Source of the DNA: Naegleria gruberi
Taxonomy: Eukaryota
Direction: 5' to 3' (one strand)
NCBI GenBank assembly: GCA_000004985.1
Contig: GG738849.1
DNA: 64,000 nt
Each line of letters starts with the position of its first letter. Positions within the stretch are counted from its first letter, which is position 1. Under the pieces are notes generated by a model that saw only the letters and a program-made list of their open reading frames with translations, made no database searches and was not told the DNA's origin. Both the position numbers and the translations under genes were made by a program. Shown here one piece after another: positions 1 to 17,612 of the stretch.

Positions 1-148
1 CTCAAATAACAACAACAATCAATATATCAATATATCAACAATTATTGTGTCGTAATTTTTTAAAGGAACAACACACAATTTTTCAAAGACTAATATTCAA
101 GTTTACTAGTTGAATTCAACTCCCGATAATAATTCATCACAATATAAT

Positions 149-2020
149 ATGGCTCCAATGAAGACTGCTGCTGTTACTACTCCAGCAACTACCACAACCA
201 CAACTACTCCAGTCACTACCACAGCATTATTGCAAAATGTTCAATCCACACTTTCTAAATCCCTTGACACTTCTCTCAATGTCATTGGTAAACAACTTCA
301 AACTCTGGGTGTTAACCTTCCACAAGATCAACAAGAAAAGCTTAGCATGGCTGTTGGTTTAACAGGAGTTGGTGCCACTCTTTATATTTTGAATAAGATC
401 TGCAGTAAGATTATGAGAATGCTTACATTACCAAAACCAAGTTTTGCCAAGAAGGATTACGATGTAGTCATTGTTGGTGGTGGTATTGGTGGTTGTGCAT
501 TGGGAAGTGCATTGTCTAAGGCTGGAAAGAATGTGTTGGTTCTTGAAAGAGATATGAGTGAGCCAGATCGTATCATTGGTGAATTGCTTCAACCTGGTGG
601 TGTTCAACATTTGAAAGATTTGGGACTCGGACATTGTCTTGAAGGAATTGATGCTGCCAGAGTTTTTGGTTATCAAGTTTTCTATGGTGATGAACAAGTC
701 AATTTGCCATACCCAGCTGATTCCAACAGTAAGGTTGGTGAAAAGGTCGAAGGTAGATCATTCCACTATGGTAGATTCATTATGAATTTGAGAAGAGCTT
801 GTGAACAAGACGGGTAAGTATCAGTTAATTTTTTCACAAGTGTGATTGAAATATTTTATAGAGCTAAGATCTTGGAAAGAACTGTTGTTTCATTGATTGA
901 AAAGACACCAGGTTTGATTGAAGGTGTTCAATATAAGGAAGGTGATGCCACTGTTGAAGCTACTGGTAATATCGTCGTTGTCTGTAACGGTGCTGGTAGC
1001 TCTTACACTAGACAAGTTCGTTCTGATAAGGTCGGAAGTGGTAACAAGCCATTGGTTGTTTCTCAATTCATTGGTTTGGAACTTGCTGCTTCTGCTGACA
1101 AGTTGCCAAGACCAAATCACGGAAACGTATTCCTCTTGCCAGATGCTCCTTGCTTGCTTTACCCAAATAGTACAACTACAGTTAGATGTTTGATCGATTT
1201 CCCTGATGGAGATGCCAACAAATTACCAAAGAGAGGCGAAGAAATGGCCAAATACCTGCTTGAATATATCATGCCACACTTGCCAGAAAATTTACATGAA
1301 TCTTTCAAAGCTGAAGTTGATGCTGGCAGAATTAAGGTTGTTCAAAATCGTGAAATGCCAGGTGAAACACCAGAATCACTCACCAAGAAGGGAGTTGTTC
1401 TGATTGGTGATGCCATGAATTGCAGACATCCAATCACTGGTGGTGGTATGACTGTCACATTCTCCGATTGTAAGGAATTAGTTAAGGCCATTGTTCAAAT
1501 TAAGGATTTGAACTGTGTTTCTGAAGTTGATGAAGCAATTCAATCATTCTATGTTAACAGATCTAAGGTTGCAAGCACTATTAACATTCTTGCCAACGCA
1601 TTGTACAGTATCTTTGCTCCACCATCTGGAAGCAAATCTTGGGAAGCATATAAGAGTGAAGGTAAGAAGCCAGACGCTCTCTCAAACAATGACAGCATGT
1701 CAATTATGCGTAGAGCTGTTTTCGGATATTTCAAGAAGGGTGGTATTTGTCAAACTGGTCCATTGTCATTATTGAGTGGTATTTGGCATTCACCATATGG
1801 TCTCATTGCTCACTTCTTCTCTGTGGCCGTTATTGGTTCAGTTGATCTCATTAAGGAAGGAGGTATTTTGGGTATCTTTGGAAGTATATATAAGAGTTTG
1901 AAGATGATAACTGGTGCTACTACTCTCATTGCTCCACTTATTGCTGAAGAACGTTTATTATCTTGTATTTTCCCTGGTTTCATTTGGAGAAGAAAGCCAC
2001 TTCCACACCACCAAAAGTAA
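149..2020 (+). CDS. Squalene monooxygenase (squalene epoxidase), copy 1; exons 149..813 and 862..2020, 48-nt intron GTAAGT..TATAG
   Basis: FAD-binding N-terminus DYDVVIVGGGIGGCALGSALSKAGKNVLVLERD. SE-family motifs GELLQPGG, GRFIMNLR, LIGDAMNCRHPITGGGMTV. The spliced frame is continuous (GG|A gives Gly). ATG at 149; the track ORF starts earlier only through a TTG. Confidence 0.85.
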
Positions 2021-4099
2021 ATATCCCAAATCATTATAATCGAGTTTTTATCCTAATAAATCTAACTTAAAAATAATTAAAAAGTCTTACACATCATTTT
2101 GAAATTGGGATAGTTCAATAGCTATTTTTCAAACTGTATCTGAATAAAATTAAATTTTCTCTTCATAGCTCTTCATTTTCTTCGATTAGTTGTGGAGTTT
2201 CCTTGCGTGATTTTCACACCAGTCCACATTTTAAAATCCTTTGTAAACCGGGTTTTGTTTTGGTGGGAAAAGGGTTCGTGCAAAAGCTATTCCCGAATTG
2301 TCCGTTTAAGCAGCAATAAAGAAAAGCTAATAATCACAATTCCAACAATCAAACAGGTTTCAAAAAAACAAATCATTCCATGGTAAATACCTTTCAGAAC
2401 TTTCACCTAATTGCAAACATGTTCCACCTCGAAAGTTTATTTCAACTGTTTCACACTTCACATAAGATGTGGACAATAACTGGTTGTGGTCTTGTTGGCC
2501 TAATCATTCACAGGATATTAAACAAGTTTTACAAACTCCTGACATTACCAAAACCAAGTTTTGCCAAGAAGGATTACGATGTCGTCATTGTTGGTGGTGG
2601 TATTGGTGGTTGTGCATTGGGAAGTGCATTGTCTAAGGCTGGAAAGAATGTGTTGGTTCTTGAAAGAGATATGAGTGAGCCAGATCGTATCATTGGTGAA
2701 TTGCTTCAACCTGGTGGTGTTCAACATTTGAAAGATTTGGGACTTGGACATTGTCTTGAAGGAATTGATGCTGCCAGAGTATTTGGTTATCAAGTTTTCT
2801 ATGGTGATGATGAACAGGTCAATTTGCCTTATCCAATCGTTGAGGGAGGAAGAGCAGAAGGTAGATCATTCCACTATGGAAGATTCATTATGAATTTGAG
2901 AAGAGCTTGTGAACAGGATGGGTAAGTATCAAATAGTTTTCATATCAACTTAATGAAACCGAATGTTAAAGGGCTACATTATTGGAAAGAACTGTTGTTT
3001 CATTGATTGAAAAGACACCAGGTCTGATTGAAGGTGTTCAGTATAAGAAAAACAACAACGATTCAACTGTTGATGTCACTTGCAAACTTGTGATTATTTG
3101 CAATGGAGCTGGTAGTTCATTCACTAGACAAGTTCGTTCTGATAGATTTGGAAATAAGCCATTGGTTGTTTCTCAATTCATTGGTTTGGAACTTGCTGAC
3201 AGTGCTGAAAAATTACCAAAACCAAATCACGGAAACGTTTTTGTTTTACCAACTGGACCTGTTTGCTTTACCCAAACAGTTCTTTAACAGTGAGATGTTT
3301 AGTCGACTTTCCACATCCTGATTCGAATAAGTTACCAAAGAGAGGTGAAGAAATGACCAAATACTTGCTTGAATATATCATGCCACACTTGCCAGAAAAT
3401 TTACATGAATCTTTCAAGGCCGAAGTTGATGCTAGCAGAATTAAGGTTGTTCAAAATCGTGAAATGCCAGGTGAAACACCAGAATCACTCACCAAGAAGG
3501 GAGTTGTTCTGATTGGTGATGCCATGAATTGCAGACATCCAATCACTGGTGGTGGTATGACTGTCACTTTCTCCGATTGTAAGGAATTAGTTAAGGCCAT
3601 TATTCAAATTAAGGATTTGAACTGTGTTTCTGAAGTTGATGAAGCCATTCAATCATTCTATTCAAATAGGAAAAAAGTTGCATCCACAATTAATATTCTT
3701 GCAAATGCTTTGTATTCGATTCTTGCTCCTTCATTAACAGTAGTAAGAAATGATCAAGAGAAAACAATACACAAAGATGACACAGTTTCCTTATTGCGTA
3801 GAGCTGTTTTTAGGTACTTACAAAGGGGAAGCTTTTGTCAAACTGGTCCATTGTCATTATTGAGTGGTTTGTGGCATTCACCATATGGCCTTTTATTTCA
3901 TTTCTTTTCTGTTGCCTTACTGGGTTCAGTTGATCTCATTAAGGAAGGAGGTATTTTGGGTATATTTGGAAGTTTATATAAGAGTTTGAAGATGATAACT
4001 GGTGCTACTACTCTCATTGCTCCACTAATTGCTGAGGAACGTTTATTATCTTGTGTGTTTCCTCGATTCTTTTGGAAGAGAACTGCACCGATCAAGTAG
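420..4099 (+). repeat. Tandem direct duplication of the squalene epoxidase gene unit (about 1.9 kb per unit, including the intron)
   Basis: Long stretches of identical nucleotides, e.g. ttaccaaaaccaagttttgccaagaaggattacgatgt at about 425 and about 2545, and the shared intron donor context caagacgggtaagtatca / caggatgggtaagtatca. Confidence 0.8.
2380..4099 (+). CDS. Squalene monooxygenase paralog, copy 2. Same intron position (exons ..2921 and 2972..). A 1-bp frameshift near 3250-3265 splits the reading frame. Possible pseudogene or sequencing error.
   Basis: Near-identical protein blocks to copy 1: LTLPKPSFAKKDYDVVIVGGGIGGC... and CRHPITGGGMTVTFSDCKELVKA. Frame switches between ORFs 2982..3287 and 3263..4099: copy 1 reads CCTTGCTTGCTTTACC, copy 2 reads CCTGTTTGCTTTACC. 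The N-terminal region before the TM helix is unrelated to copy 1. Confidence 0.6.
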
Positions 4100-4506: not shown

Positions 4507-5182
4507 ATGGCAAAAGCTGAATTTCTAAAAGCACCAATTCATGATCTTTACGCCTGGGCTCGTACCAGTTCATTGTGGCCAGTTTCCTTTGGCTTGGCCT
4601 GTTGTGCAGTAGAAATGATGCACACCTCAGCATCTGTAAGTTTATTGATCATGTTACACATTCTTCAATGTTGATTGGTGTTAAAAAGAGATATGATATT
4701 GAAAGAATGGGTATCTTTTACAGACCAACTCCTCGTCAATCTGATGCCATGATTATTGCTGGCACTTTGACAAATAAGATGGCACCAGCACTTCGTAAAG
4801 TTTGGGATCAAATGTCTGAACCAAAGTATTCAATTTCAATGGGATCTTGTGCGAATGGTGGTGGATATTATCATTATTCGTATCATGTTGTGAGAGGTGC
4901 TGATCAGATAGTTCCTGTGGATGTTTATGTTCCTGGTTGTCCTCCAAGTAAGTAATTGTTAGTTCAATTATAGAATACTAAATGGAATGATAGCTGCTGT
5001 GAGTATTAAAGTATTAAATAAGTGAATTAACATTCATTTAGGAAGCATTATTGTATGGTATTTACATGTTACAAAAGAAAATTAAGAGAAATCCATATAG
5101 AGCTGATGTGATTGCAGAAGATTTCAATCATTATCCAGGAAAGGTTGAAAGAAATCAAATAACACCACTCAATCAATTGTAA
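4507..5182 (+). CDS. NADH:ubiquinone oxidoreductase 20 kDa subunit (PSST/NDUFS7/NuoB), 3 exons: 4507..4635, 4689..~4947, ~5042(or 5046)..5182
   Basis: [43 protein letters not shown] | [86 protein letters not shown] | (E)[15 protein letters not shown]. These are classic NuoB Fe-S cysteine motifs. The acceptor and phase of intron 2 are ambiguous. Confidence 0.8.
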
Positions 5183-12236: not shown

Positions 12237-12442
12237 TTTTTTAGAAATTTAATTTATTACAAAAAAAATGTAAAGTATTGAACAACAAAAAACATTTTTG
12301 TAAAGTAGTTGAGTATTACAGATTTTTATGGATGAGTAATTGATAAATAATAATCAATTAATTTTTAAGTTTCATGAAGGAAGGAATAGGTTTTTAACTA
12401 TGTATTTAAGGAGAGTGAAGTACTAAGATAAATTAATGTGCT

Positions 12443-12513
12443 CGTCTCGTGGTGTAATGGTAGCATAGTGGACTTTGAATCCATTGACGGAGGTTCGATT
12501 CCTCCCGAGACGG
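12443..12513 (+). tRNA. tRNA-Gln (anticodon UUG)
   Basis: Cloverleaf: acceptor CGTCTCG/CGAGACG, D-arm GTGTAATGGTAGCA, anticodon stem GTGGA/TCCAT with loop CTTTGAA, T-arm GGAGG-TTCGATT-CCTCC. Confidence 0.85.
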
Positions 12514-13007
12514 TAAACGTGGCGAGCCCCTGAAATTTTGTTGAACTATGCTTTAGATATTTCAAATAATGAAAATGATTGTATATTTTTTAATTATTGA
12601 GGTCCTTTCATATGTTTGTGTATTTTATTGGTATACATTTGCTTATTGACAGCTTTAAAGGCAATTTCTAAATCATTTCTCATATTAAATTGTTTTAAAG
12701 ATTATGACAATTTATTTTCAATTGCTTATAAGGCCATTTCGTTTGTAATAAAGGATTGAAAATAGGTTTTTTCACCTGAAAAAATTGAAGTCCATTTCTA
12801 AAAGCAGTTTCAAATATTAAGCCCCTTACCACTTTATTATTGTACCTAAATTATCCATTATAATTTATCAATTAATTCTCATTCCAAGAGTTTCTTTGAT
12901 GTAAATAACACTATTTACAAAATCCATCTAATGGATTAAATTTAGCAAAACTAACCAGCCCATCCGCTACCCTTTTTAAACAAAATTTCAGAGGCTCGCC
13001 ACGTTTA

Positions 13008-13078
13008 CCGTCTCGGGAGGAATCGAACCTCCGTCAATGGATTCAAAGTCCACTATGCTACCATTACACCACGAGACG
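13008..13078 (-). tRNA. tRNA-Gln (anticodon UUG), second copy in inverted orientation
   Basis: Exact reverse complement of the 12443..12513 gene. Confidence 0.85.
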
Positions 13079-13299
13079 AGCACATTAATTATGTTAGAAC
13101 CCCAAACTACTTAAATACCCTTCAATTAAGGAAAGATCACCCAAGTCAGCGACTACCATTCTCCACAACCAATCCTCGCCTCCTTAAATAATATGTAAGA
13201 AAAGAATGTAACAATTGACTAGAACGCAAGTTGTAGAAAGTTGGCGGGAAATTTAAAAAAAAATTGCTAAACCGTTAATCTCTATTGTCAATCAGAAAA

Positions 13300-14150: not shown

Positions 14151-14801
14151 TTAAATTAATTTCTTCTTGATAAAGTATGATCGGAGGTAGTAGATTTGTC
14201 CAAAAGCAAAACCAGCCATAAAGATGAAGAAGAAAATACCCATGTATGTGATACGTTGATTAATAGTTTCAGTGGTGTATCTCATGGCACCTTCTCTTTC
14301 TCTGAAATAAACGTATTCAGCATAGATTGAGTGAACAATATCTTCCATCATTCTAAGATTAACTTCGATTGGCTTCAAATGTTCCTTTCTTGCCAATTGT
14401 TCATAATCAAAAGTATCTGTTCCGGTTAAGATATCAAAAGTAATACGACGACGCATTCCATCATGATAAGTAGCTTTAGAACTCATTCTATTGTAGAAAC
14501 AGAATGAATATTCTCCTCCTTCTTTAGCTACAAAACTAAGATCTCCTTTTTTAATATTCTTTCTTTCCAAAACAATATTTCCTCTTGGGTCAGTCACTTT
14601 AAAATCAATCTTTTGTGAATATCCAGCACCAACCTCATATTCTCCATAAACATCAAAAGTAGTAACAATTTCTTCACGGAAACAAACATAATCTCTAGCC
14701 TTTAAATCAAATTGAAAAGCATCAACTCGCAAAATACAAATCAGCAGCAGGACAGCAGCGATTAATACTATTGATGATGAAGTTGTTGTTTGTCCAGCCA
14801 T
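14151..14801 (-). CDS. p24/TMED (emp24/gp25L) cargo receptor with GOLD domain
   Basis: Signal peptide, then FQFDLKARDYVCFREEIV ... a C-terminal TM helix and a short cytosolic tail (FIKKKLI). Confidence 0.65.
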   Translation of the reverse strand: MAGQTTTSSSIVLIAAVLLLICILRVDAFQFDLKARDYVCFREEIVTTFDVYGEYEVGAGYSQKIDFKVTDPRGNIVLERKNIKKGDLSFVAKEGGEYSFCFYNRMSSKATYHDGMRRRITFDILTGTDTFDYEQLARKEHLKPIEVNLRMMEDIVHSIYAEYVYFREREGAMRYTTETINQRITYMGIFFFIFMAGFAFGQIYYLRSYFIKKKLI

Positions 14802-14929
14802 TTTTTAAAATTTAAAAATAAAAATCACAAGTCGCCAGCTTTTTTGCTTTCGTCATCACCACATGAAAGCCTTTCAATATTAATTAAATATATTTGGCTT
14901 GCGAATTAATTGAACAGATTGATTTAAAT

Positions 14930-15712
14930 ATGACAATACTAGAAGTTTGTATTGATAGTTATGAGAAGGGAGTGCAAGCTTGTTTGAATGGTGCTAAACG
15001 ATTAGAGTTGTGTTCCGATTTGGCTTTGGAAGGCTTTACTCCGAGTGAAGAATTGATTGAGGAATTTATGAGGGATGTTTTGAGGAGAAGTGATGATAAT
15101 GAAGTGATTCCCATTCATGTAATGATTAGACCTATCAAGAGGGATTCAAATATTCTCGACACATTCTGCTATGATTCGAATGATTTACAAATAATGAAAG
15201 AGCAAATTAGAATGTGCAGGAAATTAATTGATCTTCATGCAGTGGAAAAGTCAAGATTTAAAATTGAGGGATTTGTTATTGGATGCATCAAGAAGGAGAA
15301 TGGTGGAATTATTATTGATACTGAAATATTGAAAGAATTGTGCGAAACAATTCAAGAGAATAATGGACATTTCAATATTACATTCCATAAGGCTTTTGAT
15401 TTACTGACACATCCTGCAGAATCTCTCGATATTCTTTTACAGTTTGGAATTAATAGAATCCTTACTAGTTTATGTTTTGCTTACACAGACTTGAAAGGCA
15501 AAATTACTGCAGCTCTAGAATCCAATAATTCTCAAGTTGACCAATTTCTTAAACACCTAAAAGAGATTAATCAACACCAAACTGTAATGACCTTATTAAT
15601 TGGAGGTGGAGTGCGTGAATGCAACCAATTATCCATTATTAACTTTATGAACCAAAATGCAATTATTCCGTTCGAACTTCACTCCTCCACTCCCTTTTTA
15701 ACAATCAACTAA
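14930..15712 (+). CDS. CutC-family copper homeostasis protein
   Basis: MTILEVCIDSYEKGVQACLNGAKRLELCSDLALEGFTPS ... ITFHKAFDLLTHPAESLDILLQFGINRILTS match the CutC TIM-barrel motifs. ATG at 14930. Confidence 0.65.
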   Translation: MTILEVCIDSYEKGVQACLNGAKRLELCSDLALEGFTPSEELIEEFMRDVLRRSDDNEVIPIHVMIRPIKRDSNILDTFCYDSNDLQIMKEQIRMCRKLIDLHAVEKSRFKIEGFVIGCIKKENGGIIIDTEILKELCETIQENNGHFNITFHKAFDLLTHPAESLDILLQFGINRILTSLCFAYTDLKGKITAALESNNSQVDQFLKHLKEINQHQTVMTLLIGGGVRECNQLSIINFMNQNAIIPFELHSSTPFLTIN

Positions 15713-15970
15713 TTATTTCCATTCCAATATATTTGGAGATGAAAAGATAACTACATTCCAATGGACTCCGTAAATAATGTTTTACCTACTCAACCAACAT
15801 TTTGAATTTATCACCCCTCCCCTCCAACTATTACTGTCACCCATTTGAAAATTGTAAAAATCTCTAACACAGATCCAAACAAGATCTTTTCTTCGATTTT
15901 TATTGAAATCTCTCGAAGGTCGTGTGATTTTCACATCCTCACAACTCCACACACAAAACACCGAAAAAAA

Positions 15971-17527
15971 ATGCAAAATCCTCCCCTCTACAATTTCACA
16001 CCTAAAAATTCATTTTCCAACAATATGATGAGGAAGAGCAGCAAAATTCTCGGAATTAATTTATTAAATTTTGTATTTATTGTGCTGGTAGCATTTGTGA
16101 TGAGCACGAATAAGTTGAGAGTTAATGGTTCTCCAACACAGCAGGAATATACTTCATCACCTGTAGAATTGGTTCACGCTTTTAATTTTGTTAATTTTAA
16201 TTTTACATCAGAAGAACAACGTCAAGAATATATGAAAGATGAAATTTACAAGCTTGTTGCTTTGGCAGGTGTCAAAGTTGATGCTAATGGAGATATTTAC
16301 GTGTCAATGCCTCGTTGGAAATCACCAAAGATCCCAGCAACATTGGCAAAGATTGTAAAGGGAGAAAATGGTCAACCAATTCTTGAACCATTTCCAAGTT
16401 GGGAATGGAATAATGTCAATAACGCAACCTTTGGTCTTCAAAGTGTTTTAGGATTTGAAATTGATGGTCAACAAAGAATGTGGATCTTGGATCAAGGAAA
16501 AGTTGCTGGAAAAGCTGCTGAAAAGGAAAGTATTAAATTGGTTGTGTGGGATTTGGAAAAGAATGAACTCATTGCTAAATATCATTTCACACCAGAGGAA
16601 GCATCACCAACCAACTCATTCTTGAATGATATTGTCGTTGATTCTGACCAAAATATTGCCTTTATTAGTGACAGTGGTATTCCAATTGATAATCCAAATA
16701 AGGATCCAACCATTCGTCCACAACCTGGTATTTTAGTTATTGATATTGATGATTTGAAAGTTAAGAGATGGTTTGATGGATTGCCTCAAGTTCAAGTTGA
16801 CCAAAGCGCATGGCTTGATGTTAATGGTAAGAAATGTCTCCAAAATGAACCAATGAAAACTGGTGTCGATGGCATTGCTCTCAGTTGTGATTACAATAGA
16901 TTGTATTGGACTCCATTGACCTCTAGAACTTTGTATGGTATTGATGCCAACTTGTTATTGATGTATCCACCAAACACAACCTTGGTTCACGATAAGATTG
17001 TCAATTATGGTGACAAGATTTCATCTAGTGATGGTTTTGCTATTTCTTCTGATTCCACATTTTATATTACTGCTATTGAAAATAACACAATTTATGAAGT
17101 GAGTGAGGAAGGTCTTGCTGATGTTTTAGAAGGAAAGACCAAAATCTCTGATTTCAAATTGAGAGAATACATGGTTGACTCTTTGAAGAATATCACCATT
17201 ACTCACCAAAATGAACTTGTCTGGCCTGATACTATTGGTATTTCCAATGATGGATACATGTACTTTGTTACAAACAATTTGTGTGACTATGTTCAAGGAT
17301 TTATCACTGATTTCGACAAGCCAAACTTTTTCATTCATAGAAAGTTTATTGGAGCTTCATCTTATGTGAATGGATGTGAACAAGCTCACTTGGAATTGGG
17401 AGCTAAGGAATGGGCAACTATCGGTACCTTGTTAGGTCTTTGGATTCTTGGATTGGTTATTATTGTAGTTTCTGTTACCATTGTCAATAGAAGAAAAAAG
17501 GCTAAAGAAACCTATACAACATTGTAA
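15971..17527 (+). CDS. Yellow / major royal jelly protein (MRJP) family beta-propeller protein, with an N-terminal signal-anchor and a C-terminal TM helix
   Basis: SFLNDIVVDSDQNIAFISDSG ... KTGVDGIALSCDYNRLYWTPLTSRTLYGIDANLL resemble the MRJP/yellow core. C-terminal TM helix WATIGTLLGLWILGLVIIVVSVTIV. Confidence 0.5.
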   Translation: MQNPPLYNFTPKNSFSNNMMRKSSKILGINLLNFVFIVLVAFVMSTNKLRVNGSPTQQEYTSSPVELVHAFNFVNFNFTSEEQRQEYMKDEIYKLVALAGVKVDANGDIYVSMPRWKSPKIPATLAKIVKGENGQPILEPFPSWEWNNVNNATFGLQSVLGFEIDGQQRMWILDQGKVAGKAAEKESIKLVVWDLEKNELIAKYHFTPEEASPTNSFLNDIVVDSDQNIAFISDSGIPIDNPNKDPTIRPQPGILVIDIDDLKVKRWFDGLPQVQVDQSAWLDVNGKKCLQNEPMKTGVDGIALSCDYNRLYWTPLTSRTLYGIDANLLLMYPPNTTLVHDKIVNYGDKISSSDGFAISSDSTFYITAIENNTIYEVSEEGLADVLEGKTKISDFKLREYMVDSLKNITITHQNELVWPDTIGISNDGYMYFVTNNLCDYVQGFITDFDKPNFFIHRKFIGASSYVNGCEQAHLELGAKEWATIGTLLGLWILGLVIIVVSVTIVNRRKKAKETYTTL

Positions 17528-17612
17528 GTATAATTAATACCATTATTTACATTAATAATTACTATTTATTCCCAAATATTTCAAATTCCAATAATATATT
17601 TAGGCAATAAAC

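Follow-up and report, generated by a model that had tools for sequence, protein, structure and literature searches.

Does the second of the two squalene epoxidase (SE; EC 1.14.14.17) genes of Naegleria gruberi still encode an enzyme, or has it been lost, and if so, how recently? The question is raised by a stretch of 64,000 nucleotides (nt) from contig GG738849.1 of assembly GCA_000004985.1, referred to as the window herein, in which the NEG-M genome carries two SE genes, SE1 and SE2, in tandem and both on the plus strand. The original prediction had described a same-orientation tandem duplication with a one-base frameshift in the second copy, and this part holds. The Pfam domain SE (PF08491) is matched by SE1 and by the frame-repaired SE2 with E values of ~7e-68 each, FAD_binding_3 is matched as well (FAD, flavin adenine dinucleotide), the pair is the only direct repeat of at least 60 nt that a repeat finder returned within the 64-kb window, and one T is missing from SE2 at 3260/3261. 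The frameshift is probably real, and SE2 would then be a nascent non-processed pseudogene or a null allele that arose very recently on an old duplicate.

The duplication is already known as an annotated and published gene pair. The spliced translation of SE1 is identical to RefSeq XP_002681586.1 (D2V251) in an exact look-up, and the top protein match of SE2 is XP_002681587.1 (D2V252) of N. gruberi, with 100% identity in tblastn over 2467-2922. Both accessions are listed as N. gruberi squalene epoxidase in S1 Table of Zhou et al. 2018 (PMC6136796), wherein the pair is 79% and 64% identical to the single SE gene of N. fowleri. N. gruberi incorporates 13C-glucose into cycloartenol and ergosterol, meaning that sterols are synthesized de novo (PMC6136796), and hence a working SE must exist. 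Presumably, SE1 performs the step from squalene to 2,3-oxidosqualene that feeds cycloartenol and ergosterol synthesis. In the public record, both genes stand as intact enzymes, whereas the frameshift of SE2 is masked there by a 53-nt model intron. Neither the frameshift nor either accession is mentioned in the searchable full text, and the conversion mosaic and the pocket substitutions described below were not found in the literature searched. New are the masked frameshift, the mosaic, the rate asymmetry between the copies, and the pocket changes, all of them ordinary in kind.

Gene architecture and the missing base of SE2

The two genes are composed of the following elements.

149-813, plus strand: SE1 exon 1, from Met1 to the first two bases of Gly222
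814-861, plus strand: SE1 intron, 48 nt, GTAAGTA...TAG, phase 2
862-2020, plus strand: SE1 exon 2, with the SE domain, Y322 (equivalent to Y335 of the human enzyme), the GD motif and the C-terminal hydrophobic helices; TAA stop included
2021-2466, plus strand: spacer and SE2 leader, open from ATG 2380; the RefSeq start is ATG 2467
2467-2921, plus strand: SE2 exon 1 as in XP_002681587.1; model rebuilt exactly
2922-2971, plus strand: SE2 intron, 50 nt, GTAAGTA...AAG, phase 2, at the same position as in SE1
2972-3287, plus strand: SE2 exon 2, part in the original frame, ending at the premature TAA 3285-3287
3260/3261, plus strand: missing T, SE2 CCT^GTT compared with SE1 CCT TGC
3263-4099, plus strand: SE2 exon 2, part in the -1 frame, a 278-codon open frame to TAG
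3279-3331, plus strand: "intron" of the RefSeq model XP_002681587.1, 53 nt, GTTCTTTAAC...GAATAAG

SE1 encodes an intact product of 607 amino acids (aa) that matches human SQLE (Protein Data Bank entry 6C6N) with E=1.9e-80 over the whole catalytic domain; its cluster at 90% identity is represented by a 222-aa fragment from ENA. Exon 1 of SE1 encodes an N-terminal extension, the membrane anchor, the GxGxxG FAD motif, and the equivalent of Y195 (Pfam FAD_binding_3/SE). The FAD-binding and catalytic residues, namely GxGxxG and, in human numbering, Y195, R234, Y335, D408 of the GD motif, and M421, are all present in SE1, and all of them are present in SE2 once a single base is restored. SE1 has an uninterrupted frame that connects its N-terminal FAD module with Y335, the GD motif, and the C-terminal helices; SE2 as assembled does not. 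The shared intron had been predicted to be identically placed and of phase 1: the placement is correct and recurs in N. fowleri, N. lovaniensis, and a metagenomic Naegleria contig (L005), but the Gly codon is split after its second base (GG|GTAAGT), and exon 1, with 665 nt in SE1 and 542 nt in SE2, leaves a remainder of two in both genes when divided by three, so that the phase is 2.

Outside the shared body, the copies have little in common. No homology was detectable between SE1 and SE2 in the 5′ leaders or the 3′ flanks, the comparison of the spacer and SE2 leader with the SE2 3′ flank included. The claim of an unrelated SE2 leader is hence right upstream of the membrane anchor, although the anchor itself is weakly alignable. 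What SE2 lacks is an N-terminal extension of ~95 aa that all Naegleria and Willaertia orthologues have. This extension (SE1 residues 1-95, window 149-430) is without a Pfam match and is arranged as MAPMK, a Thr-rich run, and a conserved LLQxxxSTLSKxLDxS motif, followed by the membrane anchor; everything before the anchor is absent from SE2. By analogy, the extension could be a lineage-specific regulatory region.

At the frameshift site, the alignment gives CCTTGCTTGC in SE1 and CCTGTTTGC in SE2; the assembled SE2 reads CCTGTTTG at 3258-3265, and the form containing the T would read CCTTGTTTG at 3258-3266. The repeat finder locates the same event by a fall of the copy-to-copy spacing from 2110 to 2109 at SE1 1150/1151 and SE2 3260. 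The missing T lies three codons 5′ of the Tyr equivalent to human Y335. After the deletion, the original frame runs into the TAA at 3285-3287, giving 256 aa counted from ATG 2467, and this truncated product lacks the Y335 equivalent, the GD FAD motif, and the C-terminal membrane helices, all of which are encoded 3′ of the lesion. The GD motif, a GGGMTV stretch, and the C-terminal helices are encoded by 3263-4099, which cannot be reached from the upstream frame.

Along the genes, the spacing between SE1 and SE2 takes the values 2117, 2108, 2110, 2116, 2110, 2109, and 2088. The corresponding exonic indels of SE2 relative to SE1 are +3, -12, +6, -6, -12, and -9, all in-frame, and a single -1; the intron differs by +2. 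One of the in-frame indels had been noted earlier as a deletion of three codons (ADSNSKVGEKV to IVEGGRA). It is indeed an in-frame deletion, of four codons however, and nets -3 because of an extra SE2 codon just upstream (GDE to GDDE).

Two ways in which SE2 might be expressed in spite of the missing base can be judged directly from this region. Programmed -1 ribosomal frameshifting, or another form of recoding, would carry translation past the lesion; the required shift is indeed -1, and the downstream frame is fully open. However, a direct reading of 3255-3287 revealed no X XXY YYZ heptamer in the 0-frame, CCCAAAC being out of register, and recoding is needed by no orthologue, which leaves it with a negligible chance of being correct.

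The second way is that of the RefSeq model. XP_002681587.1 (509 aa) is reproduced exactly by exons 2467-2921, 2972-3278, and 3332-4099, and by no other layout. Were the model correct, 3279-3331 would be a genuine new intron, and SE2 a 509-aa protein without 18 residues. The interval does have GT...AG ends, its 53 nt compare well with the 48-104 nt of real introns, and its excision brings SE2 back in frame. Its 5′ site, however, reads GTTCTT, as opposed to GTAAGT in seven of the seven introns inspected, that is, those at the conserved SE position in SE1, SE2, N. lovaniensis, N. fowleri, and the metagenomic contig L005, as well as two in the downstream NDUFS7-like gene. Read in the SE frame, the interval encodes LLYPNSSLTVRCLVDFPHPDSNK, whose residues line up one by one with those of SE1 and all orthologues and include the strand with the Y335-equivalent Tyr. 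Between SE1 and SE2, the proportion of synonymous differences in this segment (pS) is 0.72 and that of nonsynonymous differences (pN) 0.16; thus, it is evolving as coding sequence. Splicing would also delete the Y335 equivalent. In the human enzyme, Y335 bridges a water to the flavin N5, the rat SQLE mutant is less catalytically efficient, and the residue has been called critical on the basis of the structure (PMC6327030). Neither a GTAAGT-type 5′ site nor non-coding evolution was found for 3279-3331, and a genuine intron is very unlikely. The best reading of the interval is as a device by which the annotation regained the frame, and that of the RefSeq protein as an artefact of bridging the lesion. 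An enrichment of GTAAGT in the window was also considered; it is weak (32 observed and 22 expected) and was dropped as evidence.

An old duplicate patched by gene conversion

How old is the second copy? Long runs of nucleotide identity between the genes had been taken to point to a recent duplication. The runs are real, and their distribution is non-random, but their pattern is that of conversion tracts rather than of remnants of a young duplication.

SE1 428-705 / SE2 2545-2825, plus strand: tract A, by sliding-window pS, spacing and alignment
SE1 1225-1552 / SE2 3334-3661, plus strand: tract B, by sliding-window pS, spacing and alignment
SE1 1835-1966 / SE2 3923-4054, plus strand: tract C, by sliding-window pS and alignment
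SE1 750-813 / SE2 2858-2921 and SE1 875-940 / SE2 2985-3050, plus strand: shorter near-identical runs

In a sliding-window analysis according to Nei and Gojobori, pS is near 0 at SE1 aa ~98-175, 345-447, and 552-590 and rises to 0.5-0.7 in between. The 155 converted codons show a synonymous divergence (dS) of 0.04 between SE1 and SE2, whereas the remaining 343 codons show a dS of 0.63, a nonsynonymous divergence (dN) of 0.152, and a dN/dS of 0.24. For comparison, N. lovaniensis and N. fowleri differ by a dS of 0.39-0.55 over the same codons. Within the converted codons, SE1 differs from its orthologues by a dS of 0.6-1.1, meaning that the synonymous sites therein are not intrinsically frozen. 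When synonymous-codon identity was permuted, the longest run (52 codons) had P=0.0024 and the top three runs P<1e-4; the same permutation revealed no clustering of identity in the orthologue pairs SE1/L005 and N. lovaniensis/N. fowleri. The intron sequences of SE1 and SE2 have diverged, and the adjoining exon stretches are near-identical. The divergent blocks of SE2 align codon for codon with the orthologues and are not foreign insertions. With a between-species level of dS outside the tracts and 0.04 inside, SE2 is an old duplicate that has been patched by recent interlocus gene conversion. Herein, conversion would repeatedly overwrite or exchange the best-conserved exon segments of SE2 with those of SE1, and segments that are too diverged would escape, giving rise to the mosaic.

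A recent duplication, with SE2 decaying as a pseudogene, would account for the long identical stretches and for the frameshift. It has to contend with the dS of 0.63 outside the tracts, with the unrelated flanks and leader, and with a clustering of tracts that is explicable solely by conversion. In addition, no second disabling mutation accompanies the frameshift, although ~4-5% of neutral substitutions would make stops, and six of the seven exonic indels are in-frame. The comparison of dN and dS that had been proposed as a check gives the above 0.24 and does not look like a decaying pseudogene. This part of the original prediction is thus abandoned, and a young duplication is accorded only very little credence.

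An assembly artefact had been raised as well; two alleles might, for example, have been placed one after the other. Heterozygosity has been reported for NEG-M (PMC9928731, citing Fritz-Laylin 2010), and tracts that are nearly identical could lead an assembler astray. The copies differ, however, by a dS of 0.63, by seven indels, and in the N terminus and the flanks, which is too much for alleles; they are separate RefSeq genes with consecutive accessions; and an independent wild allele that is 98.6% identical (L006) matches SE1 only. An artefact of this kind is hence excluded for all practical purposes.

The wild allele is found on contig k127_96498 of a metagenome (ENA ERZ929261, PRJEB11402), of which 118-1613 is 98.6% identical to window 1-1492. 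It represents an SE1 allele of a wild N. gruberi-like strain and reaches beyond the window start by 117 nt in the upstream direction; an SE2 allele might be present in the same sample. The divergence between SE1 and SE2 inside the tracts, ~2.5%, is similar to that between SE1 of NEG-M and this allele. Its use for polarizing strain differences was tried and is uninformative without the SE2 of that strain.

In the relatives, one SE gene each and no adjacent second copy was found in N. lovaniensis, in N. fowleri (two contigs), and on the metagenomic Naegleria contig. Neighbour-joining trees place SE2 as sister to SE1 with a bootstrap of 97-99%, both with all columns and with all non-converted columns. 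In the most divergent 192 columns, the bootstrap is 37% for SE1 with SE2 compared with 48% for SE2 outside the Naegleria SE1-type genes, and quartet patterns in these columns favour SE1 with SE2 by 5:1:1. The duplication is old and probably took place within the N. gruberi lineage.

Constraint on SE2 and the age of the lesion

Is the frameshift a true mutation, and what was lost by it? SE2 carries 39-42 unique residues and SE1 carries 7 (Tajima chi2 22-25), and at sites invariant across four vahlkampfiids there are 14 SE2-only deviations compared with two SE1-only. Judged by these counts, the SE2 protein evolves ~5 times faster than SE1, and its constraint is clearly relaxed. If dN is apportioned by this asymmetry, dN/dS would come to roughly 0.4 on the SE2 branch and to 0.07 on that of SE1. 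Relaxed constraint is, however, still constraint. The ratio of in-frame to frameshifting exonic indels, 6:1, has P=0.0004-0.006 under neutrality, and no further stop or frameshift was found in the 1.58 kb of SE2, for most of whose history selection kept the frame open. A score of "preferred" codons, 0.57 for SE2 and 0.69 for SE1, was discarded as circular, since preference was defined from SE1.

The same observations bound the age of the lesion. As ~4-5% of random substitutions in the SE2 sequence create stops, the neutral time since the frameshift is bounded, indels allowed for, at ~0.01-0.04 substitutions per site, compared with a copy divergence of ~0.3 per lineage. The lack of a second lesion means that the frameshift is either very young or not real. 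SE2 does have the disabling lesion expected of a duplicated pseudogene that retains its intron, that is, the frameshift, the premature stop, and intron 2922-2971. Neutral evolution, with a dN/dS near 1, several lesions, and indels of any length, is not what it displays.

We consider the following course of events more probable than its competitors. SE1 is the conserved orthologue and SE2 an old tandem duplicate, which has lost the N-terminal extension and evolved faster, yet was held open by selection. One T would then have been lost very recently from SE2 in the reference genome, cutting the frame before the catalytic Tyr. We infer that this loss is a genuine mutation and that, before it, SE2 was functional.

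The principal competitor attributes the missing T to faulty base calling, to a consensus error, or to a variant of one haplotype, and regards SE2 as intact, expressed, and functionally diverged. It is a possible explanation, although clearly a less probable one. It would account well for a single lesion in an otherwise open SE2 frame of 556 codons with complete FAD and catalytic residues after repair of one base, for the long-term purifying selection and frame conservation of SE2, and for the fact that second, more divergent copies of CYP51, ERG24, and SMT are also kept in N. gruberi; the reported heterozygosity of NEG-M (PMC9928731) would agree with a haplotype variant. An error is made less probable by the context of the site, a TT that becomes T in CCTTGT, which is neither a homopolymer nor prone to compression. 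The site sits in a divergent block, tract B beginning ~75 nt downstream, where reads of SE1 and SE2 are not confusable. Moreover, the same frameshifted sequence underlies the RefSeq model, and the constraint on SE2 is relaxed, so that its loss is plausible.

Several points weigh against the recent loss of SE2. The Sanger assembly may contain a consensus error or a heterozygous allele here, and an otherwise perfect open reading frame (ORF) is exactly the outcome expected of a sequencing error. A dN/dS well below 1 and pocket substitutions that are possibly non-random suit a functional gene equally well. Furthermore, support for pairing SE1 with SE2 falls to a bootstrap of 37% in the 192 most divergent columns, which makes the age and placement of the duplication less certain. 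Independent sequence of the gene was sought as well: no SE2-like locus was returned in metagenome scans with a single protein and with an alignment, and exact look-ups of three SE2 ORFs and one neighbouring ORF gave no record in independent assemblies. A separate homology search with SE2 had a cut-off of 1e-100, at which fragments would be hidden. A dosage adaptation of the sterol pathway, also proposed earlier, is unlikely as stated because the SE2 protein has strongly diverged from SE1.

The surroundings of the gene pair contain further features. Immediately downstream of SE2, at 4507-~5000 on the plus strand, lies a gene for an NDUFS7/PSST-like subunit of complex I, in which two short GTAAGT introns start at 4636 and 4948. 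In N. lovaniensis and N. fowleri, SE is followed by genes for a DNA methylase, RPB9, ribosomal L28e, RCC1, and peptidase S49, none of which has a counterpart within the 64-kb window. The synteny of N. gruberi with both species is thus broken directly downstream of SE, and the boundaries of the duplication are not informed by it. In N. fowleri ATCC 30863, identical SE genes are located on VFQX01000018.1 and VFQX01000016.1, which are probably haplotigs; the latter contains, between SE and the DNA methylase, an ORF resembling a long interspersed nuclear element (14565-17591, minus strand, with RVT_1, RNase_H, and endonuclease domains) that the former lacks. Farther along the window, an inverted repeat is formed by 12431-12545 and 12976-13090, with arms of 115 nt that are 98% complementary and 430 nt between them. 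Each arm holds a tRNA-Gln(UUG), at 12442-12514 (plus strand) and 13007-13079 (minus strand), making up a duplicated pair arranged head-to-head or tail-to-tail.

Pocket substitutions and the place of SE2 among sterol enzymes

What could SE2 have been doing while it was held open? The pocket for inhibitor and substrate in human SQLE (PDB 6C6N; Padyana et al. 2019, PMC6327030) was mapped onto the alignment. Fungal mutations conferring resistance to terbinafine map to eight positions, including L326, F477, and F495 (PMC6327030, text and Supplementary Table 1), and at these three SE2 deviates.

3243-3245, plus strand: SE2 codon GTT (Val) at human L326 / yeast L251; Leu in SE1 and the other vahlkampfiids
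3722-3724, plus strand: SE2 codon CTT (Leu) at human F477 (T. rubrum F397L, yeast F402L); Phe in SE1 and all orthologues
3818-3820, plus strand: SE2 codon TTA (Leu) at human F495 (yeast F420L); Phe in SE1 and all orthologues

Of the 14 deviations that SE2 alone shows at conserved sites, three fall on the eight resistance positions (hypergeometric P ~0.007 in a post hoc test), while the pocket as a whole is not enriched for such deviations (P ~0.11). Phe to Leu is also a common conservative change. L326V, F477L, and F495L are put forward as a post hoc lead and not as a finding.

Both SE1 and the repaired SE2 conserve the residues at I162/E165, Y195, R234, Y335, D408, and M421 of human SQLE. In contrast to the human enzyme, those of Naegleria carry an N-terminal extension of their own as well as an insert that follows the F477 helix, and V, L, and L at L326, F477, and F495 occur in SE2 alone. 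With the fungal ERG1 alleles for terbinafine resistance (T. rubrum F397L; S. cerevisiae F402L, F420L, and L251F), SE2 shares both Phe-to-Leu changes. Unlike these alleles, the changes of SE2 are fixed differences between paralogues that were not selected by a drug, and L326 is replaced by Val as opposed to Phe.

SE is not the only sterol enzyme with a second copy. The close and the divergent N. gruberi paralogues have identities of 86/76% for CYP51, 81/71% for ERG24, 86/75% for SMT, and 79/64% for SE, so that the second paralogues are 10-15% more divergent, and N. fowleri carries one gene for each (PMC6136796, S1 Table). This suggests that the SE, CYP51, ERG24, and SMT paralogues of N. gruberi represent a partial second set of sterol enzymes. 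It is conceivable, if rather unlikely, that SE2 of wild-type N. gruberi is an intact, specialized second epoxidase with a remodelled pocket and without the possibly regulatory extension. SE2 would then be an allylamine-insensitive isoform or have an altered substrate specificity, it would belong to a set of divergent paralogues (SE, CYP51, ERG24, SMT) that N. fowleri lacks, and the frameshift would be a lesion of the laboratory strain or of the assembly.

Two known systems help to place the locus. In humans, the functional CYP21A2 stands beside the disabled duplicate CYP21A1P in the same orientation, with conversion tracts between the two. SE2 differs from CYP21A1P by its single, very young lesion and by a body most of which has diverged beyond the reach of conversion. 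Plant squalene epoxidase families, such as SQE1-6 of Arabidopsis, include divergent "SQE-like" paralogues, some of which are fast-evolving and of unclear activity. Unlike these, SE2 groups with the SEs of Naegleria and stems from an independent, Naegleria-specific duplication.

The locus is mainly useful as an annotation warning. The model D2V252/XP_002681587.1 spans the frameshift and lacks the catalytic Tyr strand, rendering it unsuited to drug-target, docking, and phylogenetic use, and the orthologue of the N. fowleri target is SE1 (XP_002681586.1). If SE2 proved to be intact in other strains, its resistance-type pocket changes would bear on the allylamine sensitivity of Naegleria, a connection that is as yet unproven. 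Beyond this, the gene pair is a clean, small case of an old duplicate that is partly tied to its parent by conversion while the rest of it is escaping.

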